Positions 29,441 through 60,958 of a stretch of DNA of 64,000 nt are shown piece by piece. Every line of letters starts with the position of its first letter. The first letter of the stretch is position 1. Both the position numbers and the translations under genes were made by a program. The DNA is from Isurus oxyrinchus (taxonomy: Eukaryota), in NCBI GenBank assembly GCA_026770705.1, contig JANJGN010000038.1:2542001-2606000 (forward strand), in the 5' to 3' direction. A model generated the notes under the pieces. The model worked only from the letters and a program-made list of their open reading frames with translations. It had not been told where the DNA came from and ran no database searches.

Positions 29441-31911
29441 GAAGTTTAGTCCACTGTCTTGTTATGATGACCCAGAAACAGGGAATAATCAATTACGTTT
29501 CTGCTCCCATGTCTGTCGGTGTCTTATAGGGCCAGTAACAAGGAATCACTCCGAGGGATTGTGCTCGCTTGGCTGCTTGTGTCATATAAACACAGCAGCT
29601 GGAGATAATGCCCAGGGCTTGTGAATCAATGTGTGTCTGTGTGACTTGGGACCAGCCCCTTGGAATCATTAACAAGACTTGTGATTAACGGGCACTTCGT
29701 ATGAGATAATCCCTGCACCTAGAAGAAATTCCCAGGTTTTGAGCAACTAAACGGTCATCCAGGTTCTGGGGACAATTCCCAGCGTTTATGTTCTCTGCTG
29801 AGTCTGCTAGGCCTACGTGTTTGATACTAATCCCAGGATCTATGCTCCGTGATGCTTCTAATATCCCCCAGTCTCTAGGAATCACATCCAGGGTTTGTGC
29901 ACCCTAGAGCGTCAGGTGCACCACAGGCTCTCGGAATCATTCCTTTGGTTTCTGCCACAATAGCGTCATGCTCTGAGAATCATTCCTAGGATTCACACCC
30001 TGGTACTTCAGAGAGGATACAGGTTCTGGGAATCAATCTCAAGTTATTAATTCATTTGAAATGAAAGTCAATATACCCAATGGAAAAGAACCTGGACTGC
30101 TTGGGCATATTGTTGCTGGGCAGATCTTTGTATAAAAACGCTCCTTTGCGAACACCTGGGTTCTTGTTGCCTTTCTATCAGCGGGCTGGAAACTGATTGT
30201 TGAAGTTTCTGCACAGCAGCCACAGATGTTTCCTGTCAATTGCAATGTGACTTATCGCTCCTCCCTGATGATAGATTTCTGGGATCCTGCCAATTTCTGT
30301 GGAGCAGACATATGGGATGAACGTGTTATTCAACAAACTGGGAATAAATTCATCAGTTAATGAATCGTTAGGCAATGTCGATCTAAATTGTGTTTCTCAT
30401 GAGATGATATTAAGGAAACTGCGTTTTGTGAATGGCATGTTCCAAACAGAATAAATGTGAGATCAACAGTTTGGGATTTTAATTAATTAACGCCAATTTG
30501 ATTGTGATAATTGCGAAGTTCCTTTACAATCCTGTAGAAGGGAATGCCAGCTGAGCTGGTATCACACAGAAACAAAGAACACATTAACTACAATGATACC
30601 AATATTTGATTCCTTAAATAAGTTTCTATTTTACCCAATAACCTGCAGTTGGCAGAGCGACAGCCCCAGTCTGAAGACTGACTGCGAACTCAAATTATTC
30701 ACTGAAATGTTAGTACAATTATAATGGCAGGCTTTATAATTTCATATGTAACCTGTTGGTACAGTTTGTGTTGGCATCTGAAAAGCTGAACTTTAATTGC
30801 ACAATAAATTCAATGATTTCTCTTCCTTGGTGAAAATTAACAACTTTAAAAAAAAATCAAACTCGTGATGCCCCAAATCTCTGAATATAATTTCTGGTTC
30901 AGTGGTTACAGCCTGATCGATATTGTTTTATCTGCATTGCTAAATATCCCCATGGTTTGTGGGATGCATATGTCGCATCAATAAGAAAGCTAGGCACGGT
31001 GATTTAATTCTCAACTAAATAGGGTTCGGCTGGACTATGCAGTCTTACCACACAAACACTCCTTGGTGTAAGTCTCAACGTCTCCCATTTAGAATCGTTC
31101 AGTGTGAAATGAAAGAGCAATATTCAGACTGGTGAACTGAGATCCTGTGGAAAATTGATTCACCAGGAATTGTTTTAAAGTGAAGCTGCACATTTTACGA
31201 TGGATTATATCTGAAATTAAGTGATATTACTCCGAAACATTTCATGTTAGTGGACAAATATCATCGCTTTCTCTGGACAAATATCAGTAACATTTGTATG
31301 TTCTGTCCCACAGGTAGAGAAAAATGGAAATAAGAAAGACTTGCAGTTACACATTGCATTTCACAACCACAGGATACCTTATAGCTCTTCAAAGGCAATG
31401 AAGATTTTCTATTTCTAAATATATAATCAACAACGTAGTGCATGGAAACGTGGCCGTGAATTCACGCACAGCAAGATCCAATACACTGCACTGCGATAAA
31501 TCACCAGATAATCTGATTTTGGGATGTTGCCTGAGTGATAAATATTGGCCTTGGACACAGGGGAGATCTCTCCTGATCTTTGAAATAATTCCATGGGAGC
31601 GTTTACATTCATCTGAGAGGAATTGGACACTTAGCACATGTGAGGTGTTTATTGGGAATGCAAAGATTCGCGCTGAATCAATTTAAAACTGAGGCTGCTT
31701 TGGAAAGAGAGTGTCTCATCCCAAAGCATTAACAGACAATCTAAAAAGATACGTTTGTGGAACACGGAATATTAATGGTTAATAATTGTTTATACAGCTG
31801 GACTCAGACAGGAAAAGAGAGGAGGAGCCAGGCTGTTAACTGGGGGAGGAGAGTGACTCCCATTCTCCAGCTTTGTCTCTCTCTCTCTCTCTCTTATTTG
31901 ACTCGAGCTGG

Positions 31912-31919
31912 TATAAATA
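31912..31919 (+). promoter_or_regulatory. TATA box of the IgH V promoter
   Basis: TATAAATA about 98 bp upstream of the leader ATG at 32010, preceded by a (CT)n tract at ~31876-31893. Confidence 0.7.
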
Positions 31920-32009
31920 GCGGGACGGTTCAGCTCCTGGTTCACAATCCGCAGGTGTCACTGCGACGGAGAGTCACGCTCCCAAGTCAGTTATACCCAG
32001 AGACTGAGG

Positions 32010-32055
32010 ATGGGATTTGCGCTGTGCCTTTGCTTCTTCTTGGCTTACTTCACCT
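32010..32055 (+). CDS. IGHV: IgH V leader exon (MGFALCLCFFLAYFT, phase 1)
   Basis: ATG, a hydrophobic signal peptide and a GTGAG donor at 32056, followed by a 125-bp intron ending in CAG at 32180. Confidence 0.92.
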
Positions 32056-32180
32056 GTGAGTATCCCTGACTGTATAAGTGATACAATAAAGTCTGCTTCT
32101 TGTCTGATATCGTGTTGCTATTTAAGTTCAATGATTTGATTGTTTTCTAATGTAATTACATTTTTTCCATTCGCAAACAG

Positions 32181-32482
32181 ATGTCCAATCCGCCATTGTG
32201 CTGACTCAGCCGGCTGCAGAGACCGCTAAGCCGGGACAATCTCGCAAACTGTCCTGTTCGGTGAGCGGGTTCAGTCTGGACAGCTACTATGTGAGCTGGG
32301 TTAAACAAGTTCCTGGGAAAGGGCTGGAGTGGCTCCTTGCTTACAGAAAACCCTCGGATACCACGTATTACGCGCCTGGAGTCGAAGGTCGAATCATCCC
32401 ATCAAGAACTTCGTCCACAACTTACATTGAGATCAAAAATCTGAGAACCGAAGACACCGCGAGGTATTACTGTGCAGGAGGC
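32181..32482 (+). CDS. IGHV: IgH V exon, germline and unrearranged
   Basis: (Y)VQS-AIVLTQPAAETAKPGQSRKLSCSVSGFSLDSYYVSWVKQVPGKGLEWLL...EDTARYYCAGG has the canonical Cys, Trp and YYC in an open frame, and an RSS follows directly. Confidence 0.97.
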
Positions 32483-32521
32483 CACAGCGAACTGAACAAG
32501 CTCAGAACTTGTACATAAACC
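32483..32521 (+). other. V 3' RSS (23-bp spacer)
   Basis: CACAGCG, 23 bp, ACATAAACC. Confidence 0.93.
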
Positions 32522-32877
32522 ACAGAAGAATAATTACAGCGAATCATAGGTCAGTATTAGCTCAAAATAGGTTAAGAGATGTGTTTGAACCTCGATTGAA
32601 AAGTTACATTTTCCAAGGAAATAAAGTGGTGAATAATAAAAACCAAAAATGACTAACTCTGTATATTAAAGAGCATAGATACCGCTTAGAATGTGCACAA
32701 CTGATGACTAGGAGCCAAATGGAAATATTAACAAATTATTAGGTGAATGGGGATAATTTTAGCCCAAAGTTCTGCTCCTGAGTAAAACTCTTGGATGAAT
32801 TGCAATCAAAATCTACAAACCTTCTGCTGACTGAAAGGTTTTATTTATACACTGACTCACAGTCAGTGTGTGAGAGC

Positions 32878-32957
32878 AGTATTTGTGCCGGCTTGTGTCA
32901 CTGTGTTACTACATTGGGTCACGGTGCTGTGTATAGCGAACTCCTCATACAAATACC
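32878..32957 (+). other. IGHD: D1 segment (32906-32919, TTACTACATTGGGT) with 12-RSS and 22-RSS
   Basis: AGTATTTGT, 12 bp, CACTGTG, then D1, then CACGGTG, 22 bp, ACAAATACC. All three frames are open (LLHW, YYIG, TTLG). Confidence 0.93.
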
Positions 32958-33272
32958 CCAGAGAGGGAGTTTGATCAAATCTGCGATCCGTATCACAGCA
33001 GGAAAATCAAATAAAATAAATATGACCAACAATAAGGGTTTGAAGGAACACTGAATTACGAAAAATGTATAAAAGTCTCCATTTTTTACTAATTTTGATT
33101 GTCTTGCTAAATAGGGGCACAGATGTTAAAGGCATATTTCGGTCCGTTTATAAACATAATGAAAAATTCTAACTGAAATATCACAGTGATGTATTCCTCG
33201 AGTATTCAGTATCAGGTTTCTCAGGCCGCTGTGGATTTGAATCTCTGTATTTCTCATTTAACAGTCCGCCGC

Positions 33273-33342
33273 ATTTTTTGTCATGGTGCGTCTCACAGTG
33301 ATACAACTGGATGGCACAGCCGTTACTGTTAATGCAAAAACC
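33273..33342 (+). other. IGHD: D2 segment (33301-33314, ATACAACTGGATGG) with 12-RSS and 12-RSS
   Basis: ATTTTTTGT, 12 bp, CACAGTG, then D2, then CACAGCC, 12 bp, GCAAAAACC. All three frames are open (IQLD, YNWM, TTGW). Confidence 0.93.
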
Positions 33343-33665
33343 TCATCGGGGCTAATTGATTGCATTTCGGTCGATGCATTTTGTTTTTTTACAATACAAC
33401 CATTTTAACCAAAGCCCAAACTGTGCCTGGAGCTTCCCAATTGACAGGTTTCAAGAGGTGCTAGTGTGTTAATTATTAAATCATTGGCTGCTGCTTTCAA
33501 TGCATGATCATCAGTTACTCTGTGAAATACAGAAAAAGTGTAATTTATAAACTTTAGAAATTCTTTAACAAATTTACTATTTTGATAAAGCAGGTCATGA
33601 TTTTACTCTGCCTCTCCGCTCGGAATTTAAACTAATATTGAATTTCTCCCCTTGTGTGCAGAACT

Positions 33666-33704
33666 GGTTATTGTGTGACCCAGACCAGCGAATGTAACAC
33701 TGTG
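33666..33704 (+). other. J 5' RSS (23-bp spacer)
   Basis: GGTTATTGT, 23 bp, CACTGTG. Confidence 0.93.
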
Positions 33705-33752
33705 ACTATGCTGGCTACTGGGGACAAGGGACCATGGTGACGGTGACTGCAG
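33705..33752 (+). CDS. IGHJ: IgH J segment (YAGYWGQGTMVTVTA)
   Basis: WGxG motif and a phase-1 GTAAG donor at 33753. Confidence 0.97.
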
Positions 33753-35632
33753 GTAAGAAACATGCCTTCATTCTGTGCTGTTGGATTTGCTTCATTGTCT
33801 CATATTTGTTTATTTTAGACATTAATGTGTTAACCGAAACTTTGCATTGGTGGATTCTGTGTTTACAATGTTTCATTTAATTCTGCCGCAAAGGGATTTA
33901 ACAATTGCTTCTCGGCAAAAAAAAAAAACAATGGGAGTTTTAAGGACTTGTTTGAGTGATTTGTCTTTTTTCTGCTGATGAGGTTTTGTGCCTGGCTTAC
34001 TTTAAATATTTGAGTTTTGTTAAAGAATTTGGTGTTTCTACTGCTGCAAGTTTTGTAATCGACTGAAAGTATTGTGTTTAAAAGTGTTGGAAATAAGATT
34101 GTAGACAGGAAACCGAGTGCTATCAAGGTCAAAATGTCTTTTTAAGCTATGGATTTTATAATAAATGTTTGTCATGTTTATTTGTGTTAACTGCGCTGAA
34201 AAATATCAATATAAGGTTGACGAACTTTCACCTTAAATAAGTGAAATGCTACGATAAGTAGGAACAACAGAGTTAACAAATTTCCTGCCAGAATCAGGCT
34301 TAAAATAATACAACTTGAAACATTGTAATGCTGTAATATTCCTCCCCATATTACTAAAGTATACCGTGAAATCAAACAATGCATTAAACATGACCCATCG
34401 AAATACAATTCTTCTGCCATTGTTTCATATTTCTGTTTATTTTAATAAATGACTTGTTCAATGAAAGATGATTTCAGTGCGATGTATTGAGGTTTATTTG
34501 AAATGTTGCATCTGATTCTGCTGAAAGGACTTAGGTAATTAAGCAGTTGTTGGATTCAGTCCCTCGGTGTTCTGATTTGGTGCTAAGTGCTAAGGAGAGT
34601 ATGTGCCTTGGGTTACTTTGAACAGTTAAAGCTCGTGGAACTGTTTGATGATTCTACAACGTGTAATATCGATCACATCAAACATGTGTTGGTTATGTGC
34701 TTAAACCATTGTGAAGGAGGGTTATAGTTACAAAGCAAACAGGCTTTTTAATCAATATTGAAAGATATATTGATGCATTTTTATTTCAGTGCCAATTGCA
34801 GATTGAACAATTAATATTTTGTTTCTGATACTCCTATTTAATACTTGAGGTAATAATGCAATGCTAAAGTACATAACCAGCGAAGTTCAACTGTGATGGG
34901 GAGTTAAATGAATATAACTCAAACGACTATAATGCGACAATATTTCCCAAGATTACAACAATAAAAAATAATATTGTTAGACATTTAGCAGATAATCTGT
35001 GCTATCCACAACAATGCTGCAAAACGCAGCACAATTAATAGCAGCCGGACAAATGCAAAGGTTCCAGCAATTTCCATTCTTTTTTTTTAATATAATACAC
35101 ACTGATCGCACTGCAGTATTTAGTTCAAACAGTGATTTTAAATTAATTGGTTCCTCCCTGGTTTATGCAGGTTGAAAGGTGCTAATTATTTATCAATATT
35201 AAATGCGTTTCAGCTGGCTAATTTAATATATCTGCCGGGTTGTTGAACCTTTGCTGTGCAGCCAAACAGTTCCTTGAATTTTAGCCCATTATCACTAAGC
35301 TAATCTTAAACGGTTTGCAGTTAATGAATTGCTCAATAATACTCAAATTCAAAGAAAGTTCAGAATGCATAAGGCTGGAGATGGACAAACATTGCTATTG
35401 AAGCAGGTTGGCTGAATTATAAATGTAACTTCTGAATTGAAGAACAGCAATGAATCTTGCAGAGCTGTGAGATATCCGGGTTGAATTAAATGGGAGCTAC
35501 CTTTAATTCTCATTAAAATCGTTCTGTTTGCTCGCAGAGTTTCAGTGTCTCGGGTGATGCAAAGGAATTGTTATCTCGCAGTTCTGCATTGATGATTGTG
35601 GATCTTCATTTCAATAAGTAGCATTATATATT

Positions 35633-39257: not shown

Positions 39258-39557
39258 TGACACCGTCTCCCCCCACCCTCTACGCTCTGCTCTCCTCCTG
39301 TGAACAAGCAAACACTGCCGGCTCCATCACCTACGGCTGTTTGGCTGCGGACTACTCCCCCGAAATCACCAGCGTTTCCTGGAAGAAAGATCAAGAGACG
39401 ATCACAGCTGGATTGAAGACTTACCCATCAGTACTGAACAAGAAGGGAACCCACACCCTGAGCAGCCAGTTAACCATCACCGAATCAGAGGTGGGAAGCA
39501 GCACAATCTACTGCGAGGTTCGAAGGAGCAACTCGGTCTGGCAGAAGGAAATGCCAG
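39258..39557 (+). CDS. IGHM: IgM constant exon Cmu1
   Basis: CAG acceptor and GT donor, both phase 1. (V)[16 protein letters not shown]...GCLAADY...SVSWKK...[10 protein letters not shown]...YCEVRR matches shark Cmu1 and includes the N-terminal Cys expected for light-chain linkage. Confidence 0.96.
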
Positions 39558-40467: not shown

Positions 40468-40779
40468 TTATTGTGGTGCATCATCCGACTGTTCTGCTCA
40501 CCGTGAGCCCCAGTGAAGAAATCACAAGCAGCAGATTTGCAACCATCGTCTGTTCAATCATTGATTTCCGTCCAAATTCAATCAAGGTGAAATGGCTGAA
40601 AAATGGACAAGCCATGGCCTCCGGCTTCGTCACCTCTCCCGGCTTTGAAGTGAACAGGAACTTCTCGGCGACCAGTCGGTTGACAGTCCCCGCTGGGGAC
40701 TGGTTCAGTCACACGCTCTATACCTGCCAGGTCACTCATAAAAGGGTCACCCAAAGCCGAAACATCACCAAACCTGAGG
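40468..40779 (+). CDS. IGHM: IgM constant exon Cmu2
   Basis: TTGCAG acceptor and GTAAG donor. HPTVLLTV...[18 protein letters not shown]...WLKNG...[11 protein letters not shown]...YTCQVTH...RNIT. Confidence 0.96.
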
Positions 40780-44383: not shown

Positions 44384-44689
44384 TTTCCGACTGCAACGAC
44401 CCCGTAATTACTCTACAGCCGCCGCCAATAGCACAGGTCTTACTGGAGGCGACAGTGACCTTAACCTGTATCGTGAGTAACGCCCCTTATGGAGTCCTCG
44501 TGTCCTGGACACAAGAACAGAAGCCTTTGAAATCAGAGATTGCTGTCCAGCCGGGCGATGATCCTAACAGCGTGGTCAGCCACCTGAACATCTCAACACA
44601 AGCCTGGCTGAGTGGGGCTGAGTTCTACTGCGTGGTGAGCCATCAGGATCTGCCGACTCCTTTAAGAAATTCCATCCACAAGGAAGAAC
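44384..44689 (+). CDS. IGHM: IgM constant exon Cmu3
   Basis: CACAG acceptor and GTGAG donor. (V)[13 protein letters not shown]...[16 protein letters not shown]...SWTQEQK...[13 protein letters not shown]. Confidence 0.96.
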
Positions 44690-45187: not shown

Positions 45188-45579
45188 CTAAATATCCGCG
45201 GGAACCGTCCGTCTCTGTCCTCCTGCCCCCGGCTGAAGATGTCTCCGCTCAGAGATTCATCTCCCTCAGCTGCTTAGTGAGAGGTTTCTCCCCCCGAGAG
45301 ATCTTCGTCAAGTGGACCGTCAATGACAAGCCGGTGAATCCGGGGAACTACAAGAACACCAAGGTGATGGCGGAGAACGGCAATAACTCCTTCTTCATGT
45401 ACAGCCTGTTATCCATTGCAGCGGAGGAGTGGGCCAGCGGCGCTTCTTACTCCTGTGTGGTGGGACATGAAGCCATTCCCTTGAAATTCATCAACAGAAC
45501 GGTTGATAAATCCAGCGGTAAACCGAGTTTTGTGAACATTTCCCTTGCACTGATGGACACCGTTAATTCATGTCAATGA
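45188..45579 (+). CDS. IGHM: IgM constant exon Cmu4 plus secretory tailpiece
   Basis: TTGCAG acceptor. [14 protein letters not shown]...[16 protein letters not shown]...[11 protein letters not shown], then the tail [20 protein letters not shown] with an NIS sequon and penultimate Cys. An internal donor G|GTAAA at 45517/45518 serves the membrane form. Confidence 0.97.
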
Positions 45580-45621: not shown

Positions 45622-46559
45622 GGATATTCCTCCAATTGTGAATTAAATACACAGCCACTTAATTAATTATTTTTTTCCAGTTTTGCTAATGTTAAGCCTG
45701 TTTAGTTGATGTCGGGAATTTACAGGTCTCAGACCCGAGTCTTGTGCAATCCGTGCCCCCAGCTCAGATACACCCTGGGTTAGAGACAGAATAAAGCTCA
45801 TTCATTACAGAATTCTGTAAAGTTACTTCACCAACTTGCCCCTCGCTGAGGTGAATTCTGACCATTTCCCACTAGCACACACAGTAGCAGCATTTAGATC
45901 CCATTGTTCCTGCTTCACTTTTCGTCCATCCATTCAAACTTCTACCAGCCGGATGTTGCCACATCGCACCCACTGGGAACTGAAGTGAGGGTCACAAGGG
46001 AAGGTGAAATCTATCTCGACTTAGCCAGCATAGAAATGGGGGAGGGCATTAGTTAACGCAATGCACCTGCACATCCCAACACAGATAACCGGAGTGGAAA
46101 TTGTTTAGCCAACGAGAGAGAGTGGAGAGGGGAACATTAACTCACTAACCTCCCAATCCCAGTCACAGAGGGTTTAGAAGTGAACAGCTGTCTATGATAT
46201 GAGTTCAGATACAAGGCGGCTTCTAGCTTCCTGCACTCAGATTGTAATCTTCAATCATGGCAAACATATCATGGCAAATCATGGCAAAGTGATGTTTTGA
46301 AATGATTTTCAATCTCTTGTTCTTGTAAATCACAAGTTGCCAATGATTTTTCATAATCCAAATCTGAACTGCTGTTTCCATCCTTCCTGTTTTTCCGGTA
46401 ATGTTTCTAATGTTTCTGGGGAACCTCTGTTTAATTGTTGCATTCTATCGCTTGATGTCACATTGAACCCCAAAGAAAACACATTCATACATAGAATGGC
46501 GATTGTGTTCTCCATCGATCATACCTTCACTGTCAGGCCACGTTATTGATGTTCAGTGA

Positions 46560-46804
46560 TACAAGAAACAACATAATACACACACACACTGACATAAGCT
46601 CATAAACACACACACACACACACGGACTCACATGCACACACAGAAGCACACACAAGCACGCGCACATACTCACACACACATTGACAGAAACAATGCAAGT
46701 GCACGAGTACATAACAATACACACATAAACACACACATGCACACATACACACAGGCAAAGACAGACAGACACACACCCTGGCACAAGATCACACGCACAC
46801 ACAG

Positions 46805-46835
<31 letters not shown>

Positions 46836-48011
46836 CATATACACACACATATACACATACAGACAAAGACAGGCTCACACACACCCTGGCACAAGATTAC
46901 CTACACACATGCACACTCACACACACAAAACAAAGACACACACACAATCTGACACCAGATCTCTCTCTTTCTCTCTCTCACAGACAAATGCACACAGCGA
47001 CACAGAGATACAAACACATGCATACACAACCAGTGATAGGAAAATGCACACACAATAGTACGTAAAACATACACACATACACACACCCAAACACCCACAC
47101 ATACACACACACAGACAAAGACACTGTCACACACACCCTGGCAAAAGATCACAAACGGACTCACACACACACAACAAAGGCACACACCCCATCTGAAACC
47201 AGATCTCTCTCTCCGTCTCTCACAGACAAACACACACAGTGACACACACATGCACTGAAACCAAATTGCATACAAACACGTACACAAAGGCAGGCACACA
47301 CACACAAACATGAACAAGCACACACATCCACATGAACACACACATACACACACACACGCACACACACACACTCCCGCGTGCACTGGATCATGCTCACATG
47401 CTCGAACAAATCAACACAGAAGACATACACACATGCAGACAAAAACACGCAGACAGACACACACACACACATACACACACACACACACATACATAAACAG
47501 GCAAACACATCCACACACAAACACGCACACGCAACATTGGATCATGCCCGAACACATAAACAAAGGCTGACATAAACACAGTGAGAGAAAAGCACACGGA
47601 CAGGCACAGATGCACATATAAGCACACACACACATACGTAAACAAGCACACACATCCCCACACACACACTAACATCCACACACACACACAAACGCACACA
47701 GGCTTTGACACAGACATGCACACACAGACGCACTTACAGACACACAAACACATGCATATATGAACACACATACAGTTATGCACAGATATACACACATTCG
47801 GGCACACATGCAGGCAGACAGATGCACACACACTAACACATCCACTGGATCATACACATATGCCCGAACAGATAAACACAGACTGGCATTGACACAGACA
47901 GACAAAATTACACAGACAGACACAGAGGCACACACGCATGCATGCACATACACAGACACACACACAAACATACAAACATACATAAACAAGCACACACATT
48001 GACGCACACAC

Positions 48012-48054
<43 letters not shown>

Positions 48055-48854
48055 AACGCACTCTGATAGACACACACAAACACAGGCATGCGCACACACA
48101 CACACTCACACATGCATAAACGAGCATACATACAGACATACACCGACATCCACACATTCGTGCACACACTCAGGCAGATAGACACACACACCCACCCACT
48201 GGATCATGCACACTTGCCCGATCACATAAACACAGACTGACATTGACACAGACAGACAAAAGCACGCACCCAGACACAGAGGCATCACACACACACACAA
48301 AAGCATATGTAAACAAGCACACACATCGCCATACACACACACACATTCACACACACACACATTCACACACACACATTCACGCACACACACATACACAAAC
48401 ACACACACATTTGGATAGATACAAACCCACAGACATTGAAGCAGACATGCACACACACATGCACTTACAGACACACACACATACACACACACACACACAC
48501 ACATGCATACATGAGATCGCATACAGGCAAAACAGAGGTACACACATTCGAGCACACAAGCAGACAGGCAGACAGAGACACACAGAAGCACACATACATC
48601 ATAAAGAGAAACACACACTCACACACATCCAGACACAAGATCACACACACACATACGCAAACACACACACAATCACAGAGGCATATACACAAACTCGCAC
48701 ACACATATTCACACAAACACACACACACACAAACACATGGACGCATACACACAAAAACAAATTGAGTCACACGATCAAAACACACAAACACACATGTAAA
48801 CGCACACCCACACACTGATAAAATACACACACAAACACACACACAGGCAGAAGA

Positions 48855-48898
<44 letters not shown>

Positions 48899-49188
48899 AA
48901 ACATGCATAGGTACACAGAAACAAACACACAGGTTCATGCGTAGGCACGGGAAAAGTGGCACACGTACACAAACACGTGCAAGCATGCATGGATACATAG
49001 GCAGGCATACATGCACACACACATACACATGCATACACAAGCACAAGCATACATATACACACAAACCAGCACACAGACACATATACACATAGCCACACAC
49101 ACAAGCACACAAGAATGCACATGCAAACACAGACCCACACAATGATAAACATGCACAGGCATACACACACAAACAAACTCACACTCAC

Positions 49189-49244
<56 letters not shown>

Positions 49245-50220
49245 GAGTACACATATACATAGAAAATATGCAGACATGCAACTCACAGGAACACACAACA
49301 CATATGCACAGATGCAACCTCACACTCAGAAATATACACTCACTCTCGACAAACAGACACACAGGCAGACACATTCACGCACAAGCAAGCACCTAAAAAT
49401 GCAGATATCCTCTCACACACATGCACACACAGTCACACACATGCAAACGGTTGTGAGCAAACACACAAACACACATGCATGGATGAACTCAACACACACA
49501 ATTACACATATACACAACCCCATAAACAGGCTCAGACAGGTCCTGTAAGTTTGTACATGAACATGTTCATTACTGTGCTTCAACGAGCACAACAATATAG
49601 AATTAAGGACACACTATCATGCACAATAGTGCACATGCATAGGCATTTGTACACACACATTAAAAATCGACAAACGGGTACACAGACAAATAGATGAACA
49701 GACAGTAACATTTTCACAAACATAGTGCAAGAAACAACGATGAATACATCCACGCACTCACATTAAAACAAACATATATAAACACACGCTTTAGTAAACA
49801 TAGATACGTAAATATACATTAAGACAAAGCTAGAAACATCCAAGAACACATAACGGCACGCCTCAACATACTCACACGCTCGTGGGGGCACAATCATTAA
49901 CATATCAAACATAGAACATAAAAAGGCACAATATCAGATATATTAACAGGCATGGACGTAAATAAACTCCTTAACACAGACATTAATAAGTGGACATAAA
50001 CATCAACGCATACAGACACATTAACAGACTGATACACATTCATTTACAAATGAACAAATATACACACAAAGGCGGGCCACACATAAATAAGCATATCAAC
50101 ACTCATGCCACATGAACACACACATCAACGCTCATACAACAGGGCACACAAACACAGTTAAAGGCAGAGCAAGAGATACTCGTGCACATATACGCAAATA
50201 TTTAAAAAACACAAAGGCAA
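46560..50220. repeat. Cryptic (CA)n-rich low-complexity tract with internal duplicated modules
   Basis: About 3.6 kb of CA-rich sequence. Modules such as CACACACCCTGGCACAAGAT (3x) and TGGATCAT (4x) recur. Confidence 0.95.
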
Positions 50221-50810: not shown

Positions 50811-50938
50811 ATTCCACAGACCGCATCTGGATTGAAGACAATGAGGACGATAACGGGAACATCTGGACAACCGCTTCCACATTCATTGTCCTGTTCTTCC
50901 TGAGCATTTTCTACAGCACTGCCGTCACTCTGGTGAAG
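50811..50938 (+). CDS. IGHM: IgM transmembrane exon TM1
   Basis: TGTAG acceptor and GTGAG donor. (D)STDRIWIEDNEDDNGNIWTTASTFIVLFFLSIFYSTAVTLVK contains the conserved antigen-receptor TM motif. The exon is absent from the ORF track. Confidence 0.97.
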
Positions 50939-51078: not shown

Positions 51079-51087
51079 ATCAAGTGA
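51079..51087 (+). CDS. IGHM: IgM transmembrane exon TM2 (IK*)
   Basis: Polypyrimidine tract and TACAG acceptor, then ATC AAG TGA. Confidence 0.9.
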   Translation: MK

Positions 51088-56061: not shown

Positions 56062-58445
56062 CAAAAACAGAATTACCTGGAAAAACTCAGCAGGTCTGGC
56101 AGCATCGGCGGAGAAGAAAAGAGTTGACGTTTCGAGTCCTCATGACCCTTCGACAGAACTTGAGTTCGAGTCCAAGAAAAGGTTGAAATATCAGCTGGTT
56201 TAAGGTGTGTGTGTGGGGGGCGGAGAGATAGAGAGAGAGAGAGGTGGTTGTGTAGACAAACAAGCAGTGATAGAAGCAGATCATCAAAAGATGTCAACGA
56301 CAATGGTACAATAGAACACATAGGTGTTAAAGTTAAAGTTGGTGATATTATCTAAACGAATGTGCTAAGTAAGAATGGATGGTAGGGCACTCAAGGTATA
56401 GCTCTAATGGGGATGGGGAGAGCATAAAAGATTTAAAATAATGGAAATAGGTGGGAAAAGAAAAATCTATATAATTTATTGGAAAAAAAAGGGGGAAACA
56501 TAAATGGGGTGGGGATGGGGGAGGGAGCTCTCGACTTAAAGTTGTTGAATTCAATATTCAGTCCGGAAGGCTGTAAGGTGCCTAGTCGGAAGATGAGGTG
56601 TTGTTCCTCCAGTTTGCGTTGGTCTTCACTGGAACAATGCAGCAAGCCAAGGACAGACATGTGGGCAAGAGAGCAGGGTGGAGTGTTAAAATGGCAAGCG
56701 ACAGGGAGGTTTGGGTCATTCTTGCGGACAGACCGCAGGTGTTCTGCAAAGCGGTCGCCCAGTTTACGTTTGGTCTCTCCAATGTAGAGGAGACCACATT
56801 GGGAGCAACGAATGCAGTAGACTAACTTGGGGGAAATGCAAGTGAAATGCTGCTTCACTTGAAAGGAGTGTTTGGGCCCTTGGACGGTGAGGAGAGAGGA
56901 AGTGAAGGGGCAGGTGTTACATCTTTTGCATGGGCATGGGGTGGTGCCATAGGAGGGGGTTGAGGAGTAGGGGGTGATGGAGGAGTGGACCAAGGTGTCC
57001 CGGAGGGAGCGAGCCCTACGGAATGCCGATAAGGTGGGTGAAGGGAAGATGTGTTTGGTGGTGGCATCATGCTGGAGTTGGCGGAAATGACGGAGGATGA
57101 TCCTTTGAATGCGGAGGCTGGTGGGGTGATAAGTGAGGACAAGGGGGACCCTATCATGTTTCTGGGAGGGAGGAGAAGGCGTGAGGGCGGATGCGCGGGA
57201 GATGGGCCGGACACGGTTGAGGGCCCTGTCAACGACCGTGGGTGGAAAACCTCGGTTAAGGAAGAAGGAGGACATGTCAGAGGAACCGTTTTTGAAGGTA
57301 GCATCATCGGAACAGATGCGACGAAGGCGAAGGAACTGGGAGAATGGGATGGAGTCCTTACAGGAAGCGGGGTGTGAGGAGCTGTAGTCGAGGTAGCTGT
57401 GGGAGTCGGTGGGTTTGTAATGGATATTGGTGGACAGTCTATCACCAGAGATTGAGACAGAGAGGTCAAGGAAGGGAAGGGAAGTGTCAGAGATGGACCA
57501 CGTGAAAATGATGGAGGGGTGGAGATTGGAAGCAAAATTAATACATTTTTCCACGTCCCGACGAGAGCATGAAGCGGCACCGAAGTAATCATCGATGTAC
57601 CGGAGAAAAAGTTGTGGAAGGGGGCCGGAGTAGGACTGCAACAAGGAATGTTCCACATACCCCATAAAGAGACAGGCATAGCTGGGGCCCATGTGGGTAC
57701 CCATAGCCACACCTTTTATTTGGAGGAAGTGAGAGGAGTTGAAGGAGAAATTGTTCAGCGTGAGAACAAGTTCAGCCAGACTGAGGAGAGTAGTGATGGA
57801 TGGGGATTGTTCGGGCCTCTGTTCGAGGAAGAAGCTAAGGGCCCTCAGACCATCCTGGTGGGGGATGGAGGTGTAGAGGGATTGGACGTTCATGGTGAAG
57901 AGGAAGCGGTTGGGGCCAGGGAACTGGAAATTGTTGATGTGACGTAAGGTGTCAGAGGAATCACGGATGTAGGTGGGAAGGGACTGGACAAGGGGAGAGA
58001 GAAGGGAGTCAAGATAACGAGAAATGAGTTCTGTGGGGCAGGAGCAAGCTGAGACGATCGGTCTACCGGGGCAGTTCTGTTTGTGGATTTTGGGTAGGAG
58101 ATAGAAGCGGGCCGTCCGAGGTTGGGCGACTATCAGGTTGGAAGCTGTGGGAGGGAGATCCCCGGAGGAGATGAGGTCAGTGACGGTCCTGGAAATAATG
58201 GCTTGATGTTCAGTGGTGGGGTCATGGTCCAGGGAGAGGTGGGAGGAAGTGTTTGCGAGTTGACGCTCAGCCTCTGCGATGTAGAGGTCAGTGCGCCAGA
58301 CAACAACAGCACCACCCTTGTCTGCGGGTTTGATGACATTGTCAGGGTTGGACCTGAGAGAATGGAGTGCAGTAAGTTCAGAGAGAGACAGGTTAGAATG
58401 GGTGAGAGGAGCAGAGAAATTGAGACGACTAATGTCGTGCCGACA
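56062..58445 (-). mobile_element. Penelope-like retroelement (Neptune-like), 5'-truncated; left arm of the palindrome
   Basis: Open frame with IKPADKG, FYLLPKIHK, GRPIVS, GVAMG, YIDD, a Cys-rich linker (CPCKRCNTC) and GIY-YIG (VYCIRCSQCGLLYIGET...RFAEH). Confidence 0.95.
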
Positions 58446-60958
58446 TTTTTCTCCCTCCACCTGGACCCCTCCCTCTGGATTCTTACCTTCTCTTGATCTT
58501 TCCATTGAGAACTGTCGGCGCGACATTAGTCGTCTCAATTTCTCTGCTCCTCTCACCCATTCTAACCTGTCTCTCTCTGAACTTACTGCACTCCATTCTC
58601 TCAGGTCCAACCCTGACATTGTCATCAAACCCGCAGACAAGGGTGGTGCTGTTGTTGTCTGGCGCACTGACCTCTACCTCACAGAGGCTGAGCGTCAACT
58701 CGCAGACACTTCCTCCTACCTCTCCTTGGATCATGACCCCACCACTGAACATCAAGTCATTGTTTCCAGGACCGTCACTGACCTCATCTCCTCCGGGGAT
58801 CTCCCTCCCACAGCTTCTAACCTGATAGTCGCCCAACCTCGGACGGCCCGCTTCTATCTCCTACCCAAAATCCACAAACAGAACTGCCCCGGTAGACCGA
58901 TCGTCTCAGCTTGCTCCTGCCCCACAGAACTCATTTCTCGTTATCTTGACTCCCTTCTCTCTCCCTTTGTCCAGTCCCTTCCCACCTACATCCGTGATTC
59001 CTCTGACACCTTACGTCACATCAACAATTTCCAGTTCCCTGGCCCCAACCGCTTCCTCTTCACCATGAACGTCCAATCCCTCTACACCTCCATCCCCCAC
59101 CAGGATGGTCTGAGGGCCATTAGCTTCTTCCTCGAACAGAGGCCCGAACAATCCCCATCCACTACTACTCTCCTCAGTCTGGCTGAACTTGTTCTCACGC
59201 TGAACAATTTCTCCTTCAACTCCTCTCACTTCCTCCAAATAAAAGGTGTGGCTATGGGTACCCGCATGGGCCCCAGCTATGCCTGTCTCTTTATGGGGTA
59301 TGTGGAACATTCCTTGTTGCAGTCCTACTCCGGCCCCCTTCTACAACTTTTTCTCCAGTACATCGATGATTACTTCGGTGCCGCTTCATGCTCTCGTCGG
59401 GACTTGGAAAAATGTATTAATTTTGCTTCCAATCTCCACCCCTCCATCATTTTCACGTGGTCCACCTCTGACACTTCCCTTCCCTTCCTTGACCTCTCTG
59501 TCTCAATCTCTGGTGATAGACTGTCCACCAATATCCATTACAAACCCACCGACTCCCACAGCTACCTCGACTACAGCTCCTCACACCCCGCTTCCTGTAA
59601 GGACTCCATCCCATTCTCCCAGTTCCTTCGCCTTCGTCGCATCTGTTCCGATGATGCTACCTTCAAAAACGGTTCCTCTGACATGTCCTCCTTCTTCCTT
59701 AACCGAGGTTTTCCACCCACGGTCTTTGACAGGGCCCTCAACCGTGTCCGGCCCATCTCCCGCGCATCCACCCTCACGCCTTCTCCTCCCTCCCAGAAAC
59801 ATGATAGGGTCCCCCTTGTCCTCACTTATCACCCCACCAGCCTCCGCATTCAAAGGACCATCCTCCGCCATTTCCGCCAACTCCAGCATGATGCCACCAC
59901 CAAACACATCTTCCCTTCACCCACCTTGTCGGCATTCCGTAGGGATCGCTCCCTCCGGGACACCCTGGTCCACTGCTCCATCACCCCCTACTCCTCAACC
60001 CCCTCCTATGGCACCACCCCATGCCCACGCAAAAGATGTAACACCTGCCCCTTCACTTCCTCTCTCCTCACCGTCCAAGGGCCCAAACACTCCTTTCAAG
60101 TGAAGCAGCATTTCACTTGCATTTCCCCCAAGTTAGTCTACTGCATTCGTTGCTCCCAATGTGGTCTCCTCTACATTGGAGAGACCAAACGTAAACTGGG
60201 CGACCGCTTTGCAGAACATCTGCGGTCTGTCTGCAAGAATGACCCAAACCTCCCTGTCGCTTGCCATTTTAACACTCCACCCTGCTCTCTTGCCCACATG
60301 TCTGTCCTTGGCTTGCTGCATTGTTCCAGTGAAGACCAACGCAAACTGGAGGAACAACACCTCATCTTCCGACTAGGCACCTTACAGCCTTCCGGACTGA
60401 ATATTGAATTCAACAACTTTAGGTCGAGAGCTCCCTCCCCCATCCCCACCCCATTTATGTTTCCTTCCCCCTTTTTTTTCCAATAAATTATATAGATTTT
60501 TCTTTTCCCACCTATTTCCATTATTTTTAAATATTTTAAAATCTTTTATGCTCTCCCCACCCCCATTAGAGCTATACCTTGAGTGCCCTACCATCCATTC
60601 TTACTTAGCACATTCGTTTAGATAATATCACCAACTTTAACTTTAACACCTATGTGTTCTATTGTACCATTGTCGTTGACATCTTTTGATGATCTGCTTC
60701 TATCACTGCTTGTTTGTTCACACAACCACAACCCCCACCCACCTCTCTCTCTCTCTATCTCTCCGCCCCCCACACACACACCTTAAACCAGCTTATATTT
60801 CAACCTTTTCTTGGACTCGAACTCAAGTTCTGTCGAAGGGTCATGAGGACTCGAAACGTCAACTCTTTTCTTCTCCGCCGAAGCTGCCAGACCTGCTGAG
60901 TTTTTCCAGGTAATTCTGTTTTTGTTTTGGATTTCCAGCATCCGCAGTTTTTTTTGTT
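58446..60958 (+). mobile_element. Penelope-like retroelement (Neptune-like), 5'-truncated; right arm with the longer 3' end
   Basis: Same motifs, ORF open to 60486. The 3' UTR ends GATTTCCAGCATCCGCAG followed by a T-rich tail. Confidence 0.95.
60826..60864 (+). ncRNA. Minimal type-I hammerhead ribozyme motif with a variant core, in the PLE 3' UTR; mirror copy at 56122-56160 (-)
   Basis: AGTT-CTGTCGA-A-GGGTC-ATGAG-GACTC-GAAAC-GTC-AACT: stem I AGTT/AACT, stem II GGGTC/GACTC, GAAA core and a GUC cleavage triplet. Confidence 0.65.

Follow-up and report, generated by a model that had tools for sequence, protein, structure and literature searches.

The window, i.e. the entire stretch of 64,000 nucleotides that was analyzed, carries on its plus strand one complete and intact Ig heavy-chain cluster in the order leader-V-D1-D2-J-Cmu1-4-TM, with open frames throughout and AG/GT at every splice border. 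The promoter/5' region (approximate limits 31785..32009), featuring a TATA-like TATAAAT near 31912, precedes a phase-1 leader exon of 46 nt (32010..32055) with a GT donor. In public contigs (runs X1 and X5), this exon is spliced to position 32181 (skip of 125, GT..AG), and the joined leader and V exons encode MGFALCLCFFLAYFTYVQS. The V exon (32181..32482), of which FR2 reads WVKQVPGKGLEWLL and FR3 spans 28 residues from R to C, was assigned by comparison and trees to the VHII (lambda1113-type) family of the IgW clan and is followed by an RSS with a 23-bp spacer (32483..32521). D1 (32906-32919; with its signals 32878..32957) is flanked by a 12-bp RSS on the 5' side and a 22-bp RSS on the 3' side, and IgM-like DNA begins about here. 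D2 (33301-33314; with its signals 33273..33342) possesses a 12-bp RSS on both sides, the 3' heptamer CACAGCC being non-consensus, and the D1-D2 spacer is not inverted. A 23-bp RSS leads into a mu-type J (33705-33752; with its signal 33666..33752) encoding WGQGTMVTVT. The resulting signal order, V23-12D1-22-12D2-12-23J, spans 1.3 kb.

Downstream of J follow Cmu1 (39258..39557), a family-specific type as judged by its identity to catshark and horn shark, Cmu2 (40468..40779) and Cmu3 (44384..44689), both placed by contig joints and tree, and Cmu4 with the secretory tail (45188..45579), placed by its open frame. J and Cmu1-4 represent a single open frame up to the secretory tail, ending in SCQ-stop. 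The join of Cmu4 to the TM1 exon (50811..50938) appears as a loose end in one X5 contig, and the TM2 exon (IK-stop; 51079..51087) was predicted from the sequence. As in elasmobranch IgM miniclusters, one V, two D and one J with compatible RSS lie within ~2 kb, and four Cmu exons, a secretory tail with penultimate Cys and TM exons are present; the constant exons, J and D number are not those of an IgW gene. The parts named in the initial annotation are where it had put them, and the motifs it quoted are correct.

Further elements were observed in the window. An AC-rich simple repeat of ~3 kb (46500-49700) lies between Cmu4 and TM1, and LINE fragments occur in the Cmu2-Cmu3 intron at ~41.8-43.1 kb. 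Moreover, a long open frame on the plus strand (58285-60483) with reverse-transcriptase-like and GIY-YIG-like motifs, presumably of Penelope type by these motifs, has a related copy, in inverted orientation, at about 56.3-59 kb.

V segment identity and the VHII family

A single gene of the horn shark Heterodontus francisci, lambda1113 (GenBank accession Z11776, as printed in PMC2191167), was described as the sole member of a second VH family (Hinds-Frey et al. 1993, PMC2191167). Counted by eye, codon by codon, from Fig. 5 of that paper rather than computed, 80/96 aa and 244/287 readable nt (83% aa, 85% nt) are identical between the window V and lambda1113, with no gaps and equal length (96 codons each); seven of the 16 residue differences fall in FR1. 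The marks of this family, VHII, as given in that paper, are +3 nt in CDR2, -6 nt in FR3 and ~61% identity to VH-I. Both length marks are present in the window V, and the window-type V family shows 60.5% nt identity to VH-I, which fits the published value. Furthermore, the by-eye value of 85% nt lies above the >70% nt to lambda1113 expected of VHII, whereas VH-I membership would call for >70% nt to the main mu VH and a 30-residue FR3 instead of the 60.5% and 28 residues found. Together with the grouping with IgW in the trees, this finding bears out the earlier placement of the V outside the main IgM VH family. Because the identity to lambda1113 and the family marks fit, the window V is, by sequence comparison, the orthologue of the monotypic horn-shark VHII gene, a possibility raised in the initial annotation. 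By the standard set there, novelty of the V itself is gone; the V family has been known since 1993, as a single odd horn-shark gene.

As judged from protein identities, the cloudy catshark (S. torazame) carries a VHII-type V beside Cmu: scyTo_0014239 contains a V with 82% identity and scyTo_0014240 a Cmu whose Cmu1 shows 84% identity to the window, and the two bear consecutive accessions (GCB60864/65) and have contigs of equal length. In a search of representative sequences, the best V was horn-shark IgW W26 (65%), none being closer, and a PDB search showed solely engineered or mammalian V among the 60 matches listed. A further S. torazame gene model, scyTo_0020250 (P0034), combines a VH-I-like V with a VHII-type Cmu1; VHII-type Cmu1 is therefore not exclusive to VHII.

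Within this genome, at least 47 VHII-type V were detected (36 open at 90-100% identity, 11 more partial or frameshifted), these counts being lower bounds with the best 150 of 700 candidates scored. A search with Cmu1 yielded 49 matches of >=90%, one broken match of 84%, and 61 full and one split match at ~61-72%. For each of the 47 V, a partner Cmu1 of >=90% lies on the same strand at a distance of 6.7-11.6 kb, with 14 pairs on contig C38, seven on C42 and six on C49. The family of the window gene thus numbers at least 47 clusters, and the gene is not an isolated oddity, a point missing from the initial annotation. Lower-identity Cmu1 were located on C26 and small contigs, adjoining ordinary VH-I V, and the VHII clusters and the ~62 ordinary IgM clusters reside on different contigs. 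Compared over 3.3 kb with 29 other loci, the window cluster is >=99% identical to five and 83-91% identical to 18 of them; part of the copies counted may be duplicates from haplotypes or the assembly.

VHII clusters are interleaved with IgNAR-like genes. An IgNAR-like exon (best full-length PDB match shark IgNAR 4q97, E 5.8e-39) is present in 11 copies, five of them on C38, where three sit between VHII clusters. IgNAR-like C1 exons between VHII IgM clusters were also noted on C38, C42, C100 and C126 (e.g., L059-L060). For the four species examined in PMC12227049, as far as the part consulted describes them, isotypes occur without intermingling.

Several variant loci were recorded. Three family members are joined in the germline (L102 and L104 at C38:9523108 and 11193079, L023 at C20:77085712), two with D1 and D2 fused (V-DD-J) and one with V and D1 apparently joined. 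Eight V are split at a similar place in FR2 (C544, C132, C506, C523, C358, C502, C342, C336) with Cmu1 11-12 kb away and a frameshift visible in L064, representing an amplified pseudogene subfamily. On the ordinary-IgM contig C26, a broken VHII-type Cmu1-3 (L057-L058, C26:5907549; 84%, with a stop codon) and two germline-joined VH-I VDJ genes with identical CDR3-J (L047, L048; C26:27178450, 24432881) were found.

Moreover, a second IgW-clan V family lies amid ordinary IgM clusters (L044 at G000:C140:224728, L066, L086, L087, L092, L095; further copies on C26, C151, C152 and C210). Its members combine a V with a single D (12/12) and a J of mu type, their promoter is homologous to the VHII promoter, and no C exon was found within ~22 kb (C140) or ~39 kb (C26) downstream. 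This family may have arisen by another capture, or may be what is left of the donor lineage. Downstream of it, short single-exon V-J genes of VNAR-like length with joined CDR3-J are located on the minus strand (L068-L069, G000:C26:38746800-38766600), where another V-type exon is present.

Transcripts, CDR variety and constant region

Four runs guessed to be RNA (four of the 16 listed, none of which is registered as RNA), from four studies and from the same or closely related organisms, were represented by assembled contigs. Run depth is concentrated on the exons, and the joints fit leader-V, J-Cmu1 and the C exons. One X4 contig comprises V (five differences from the window), a 36-letter junction, J and Cmu1 (seven differences), and an X3 contig features a different V-J junction. 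The VDJ-Cmu contigs are about 98% like the window, and the result holds for the family rather than for any single copy. VDJ-Cmu transcripts using this V, which the initial annotation had proposed to look for, are represented at family level: the VHII family undergoes rearrangement and splicing to a Cmu type of its own, either in this organism or in close relatives. Joining of V to J-mu/Cmu in genome and contigs also distinguishes it from TCR-associated Ig-like V (TAILV), the trees described below having been calculated without TAILV sequences.

Germline CDR variety is low in the family, the 36 V comprising six CDR1 and six CDR2 types vs 28 CDR1 and 29 CDR2 types in 38 VH-I V, a set fetched non-randomly from ~62 clusters. 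In the published figure (PMC2191167), the CDR1 of lambda1113 is identical to that of 19/36 family copies, one scan base being unreadable, and its CDR2 is 9/10 identical to that of 22/36. Purifying selection on the family CDRs was not shown by pN/pS (0.80 for 28 distinct V vs 0.77 for 36 distinct VH-I V), and low CDR variety may only reflect recent expansion.

The constant region is of mu type, the window Cmu domains being 72-88% identical to horn-shark Cmu and about 28-41% to IgW C. Cmu1 shows 84% identity to catshark scyTo_0014240 and 81% to horn shark vs 69-73% to the VH-I-type Cmu1 of the same genome; the latter type constitutes a derived clade of its own (99/99), with members from four species. 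Cmu2 groups with its catshark partner (85/91). Cmu3 and Cmu4 of VHII and VH-I type are 90-93% alike in this genome, whereas their identity to the catshark orthologue is 73-83%; the Cmu3 and Cmu4 trees, which lack resolution, do not establish that the two IgM types have exchanged 3' exons.

Origin of the V segment

The 36 family V share on average 65.5% aa / 70.2% nt with five IgW V vs 49.2% aa / 60.5% nt with 38 VH-I V, and are nearer to IgW than to VH-I in each of FR1, CDR1, FR2, CDR2 and FR3. In this genome, FR3 measures 30 residues from R to C in ordinary mu V and 28 in IgW V, in line with the two-residue difference given in the initial annotation. In the alignment, this short FR3 with a turn of the P/F-S.[RTE]SS.T type is common to VHII and galeomorph IgW V.

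In a V tree of 53 rows with identical family rows merged, the family and the catshark V (100/99) are sister to galeomorph IgW V (96/94), Heptranchias and ray IgW fall outside these, and the family groups with IgW V at 85/93. A leader+V tree of 40 rows, including five family V, supports IgW+VHII (99/96) and VH-I with ratfish IgM (100/97), and its forks nesting VHII inside IgW reach only 88-91% bootstrap; some rows in the trees were called IgW from a reading of their C regions. Placement of VHII in the IgW clan is well supported by identity and bootstrap, and its derivation from within IgW only moderately so.

The DNA from the D1 segment on resembles that of IgM clusters. Window positions 32864-33900 align at 67-69% over ~1 kb, spacers included, with VH-I (C26-type) clusters, in one piece in 8/15 fetched C26-type loci and partially in most others, and none of five IgW loci aligns with this region outside V and J. 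IgM-like DNA hence runs from the D1 RSS (32864) through J into the intron. This alignment and the Cmu identities agree with the earlier view of the two D, J (WGQGTMVTVT) and C exons as mu-type. Upstream, neither IgW nor VH-I DNA aligns with the leader intron or the V-D1 spacer, and the join was not located by non-coding DNA; intron and spacer, like the promoter, score at chance against the IgW clusters of C88. With a local score of 76-85 (z 14-18), the promoter is homologous to its counterpart in the second IgW-clan V family (C26/C140), and it shows no homology to IgW (C88) and VH-I promoters (score 19-30, z <3). Of the IgW-like leader noted initially, the protein stands (MG...LC), whereas the exon DNA matches IgW at 25/46 positions and mu at 26-28/46, and so is no nearer to IgW.

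The window cluster is an intact IgM minicluster of the VHII family, whose V probably came from IgW by an old germline transfer onto IgM D-J-C. A promoter-leader-V piece of an IgW subfamily would have replaced the V of an IgM cluster before the split of horn sharks, catsharks and this lineage, and the unit would subsequently have been copied many times in this lineage. In each cluster, RAG would join V-D1-D2-J within the cluster, as established for shark clusters (PMC2435157, PMC5192425, in the parts consulted). The predicted product is ordinary four-domain IgM, secreted or membrane-bound, with near-invariant germline CDR1/CDR2 and diversity arising mainly from CDR3 and mutation. Such an origin would be the germline version of somatic IgW/IgM V exchange; exchange of IgW V and IgM C in somatic cells was reported for nurse shark in the part of PMC4279169 consulted. 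Germline joining occurs in sharks, as in the three joined copies here, and such editing is therefore heritable.

Rather unlikely, although the best surviving alternative, is a relict origin, with two V clans in use in early elasmobranch IgM and VHII as sister to all IgW V, in which case no transfer within galeomorphs would be required. In AU tests run on the short alignments, an IgW V clade without the family was not rejected (p 0.074 in the V tree, 0.235 in the leader+V tree). The window Cmu1 moreover resembles that of horn shark and sawshark, outside the derived VH-I-type clade, and no non-coding DNA links the V end to the present IgW clusters of this genome, which also speaks against the transfer. 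Both ML trees, however, nest VHII inside IgW V beside galeomorph IgW, with which it shares the short FR3 and its turn, and VHII was not seen among the ray, squalomorph shark and ratfish matches, a weak point given the sparse protein searches. Germline exchange and an ancient lineage had both been offered in the initial annotation; transfer from IgW is likely the better account as far as the ML trees go, the AU tests not favoring it.

The initial annotation had also called FR1 mu-type, and a V composed by gene conversion within the exon (mu-type FR1, IgW-type FR2/FR3) would account for FR1 codons 7-11 (QP.[AS]ET), which match mu V where catshark and horn-shark VHII have QSASVT, and for three further mu-like sites nearby in the window's V subgroup. 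FR1 as a whole, however, shares 63.5% aa / 68.7% nt with IgW V but only 50.8% / 61.0% with mu V, and its mu-like sites are broken up by non-mu sites without a continuous tract. FR1 as a mu-derived block was rejected overall, the patch reflecting at most late micro-conversion or convergence in this lineage, and a conversion mosaic is very unlikely. As FR1 is not mu-type overall, the simplest reading would therefore put the mosaic join at 32.5-32.86 kb, past the V RSS but ahead of that of D1, and not inside V.

Hardly credible, finally, is the published proposal (PMC2191167) that lambda1113 escaped gene correction once its D1-D2 spacer had been inverted, so that VHII would be a drifted VH-I gene of convergent IgW likeness: although the AU tests leave a clade of family and mu V standing (p 0.255 in the V tree, 0.064 in the leader+V tree), the higher IgW identity in every V region and a D1-D2 spacer colinear with VH-I clusters argue against it, and the lambda1113 layout 12-D1-12/23-D2-12 occurs in 0/36 family loci scanned. 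In most of these loci, D1 is followed by a 22-bp RSS and D2 is preceded by a 12-bp one, the exceptions being the three germline-joined copies and a few with signals under the scan threshold or off the fetched stretch. With no inversion here and yet 85% nt identity to lambda1113, the V diverged before the inversion and independently of it, and the latter looks horn-shark-specific; drift as an effect of inversion is largely refuted.

Significance and comparison with known systems

Accounts of shark IgM commonly present a single VH family spread over many clusters and treat lambda1113 as a minor exception due to an inversion. If the transfer reading holds, lambda1113 would represent an old subclass common to three shark lineages, comprising 49 of ~112 Cmu1 matches here, the inversion explanation would be overturned, and much of the IgM repertoire of some sharks would escape VH-I primers. 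The subclass would owe its origin to exchange of V between isotypes, a kind of event also proposed for IgNAR (PMC12227049). In the literature found, the expansion, wide conservation, separate location, lack of inversion and IgW origin of VHII have no match, and no report links lambda1113 to IgW V or describes an expanded VHII; the IgW affinity may nevertheless be in print.

A further proposal, made tentatively and at less than even confidence, is that galeomorphs possess a second, overlooked IgM subclass with an IgW V fixed in the germline, a natural-antibody CDR specificity and its own region shared with IgNAR, accounting for >40% of IgM clusters here. If true, this subclass would be the inherited counterpart of somatic IgW-IgM switching, and retention of VHII across three shark orders with CDR1/CDR2 almost unchanged would suggest a conserved natural-antibody specificity. 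A concrete V with conserved germline CDRs is available, for which a ligand can be sought.

Nurse-shark IgM VH all share >75% nt according to the part of PMC2435157 consulted, and this species seems to be without VHII, which may be a reason why reviews ignore the family. IgM1gj of nurse shark, as described in reviews, is likewise a distinct IgM subclass, but is germline-joined and devoid of Cmu2, whereas the window cluster is unjoined with all four Cmu exons.

Elasmobranch IgW V (horn shark W26 P83907, Carcharodon XP_041031595, Triakis, Carcharhinus and C88) are 56-68% identical in aa to the window V. Five V on C88 (65-67%) are accompanied by three D and a WG[ST]GTFLEVTS J, and in the one C88 cluster whose C region was retrieved, the constant exons are of IgW type and match those of Carcharodon at 95% identity. 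The C88 FR2 is 95% identical to that of the window, and IgW V have the 28-residue FR3 and MG...LC leader in common with it. D number, J, C exons and D-J spacer DNA of the window, in contrast, are mu, IgW C1 being ~29% identical.

Ordinary VH-I miniclusters (nurse shark Groups 1-5; C26-type) agree with the window in layout, RSS, J, tail and TM and share D sequences with it, one D1 being identical in some copies; they differ in V (49% aa), Cmu1 and Cmu2 (69-75%) and promoter. The VHII cluster of horn shark, finally, shows the same V-D1-D2-J-Cmu order and is expressed. As described there, lambda1113 is present in one copy with an inverted spacer (12D12-23D12) and was read as drifted VH-I, whereas the window family comprises at least 47 copies with canonical 12D22-12D12 signals, on contigs of its own and interleaved with IgNAR-like genes.
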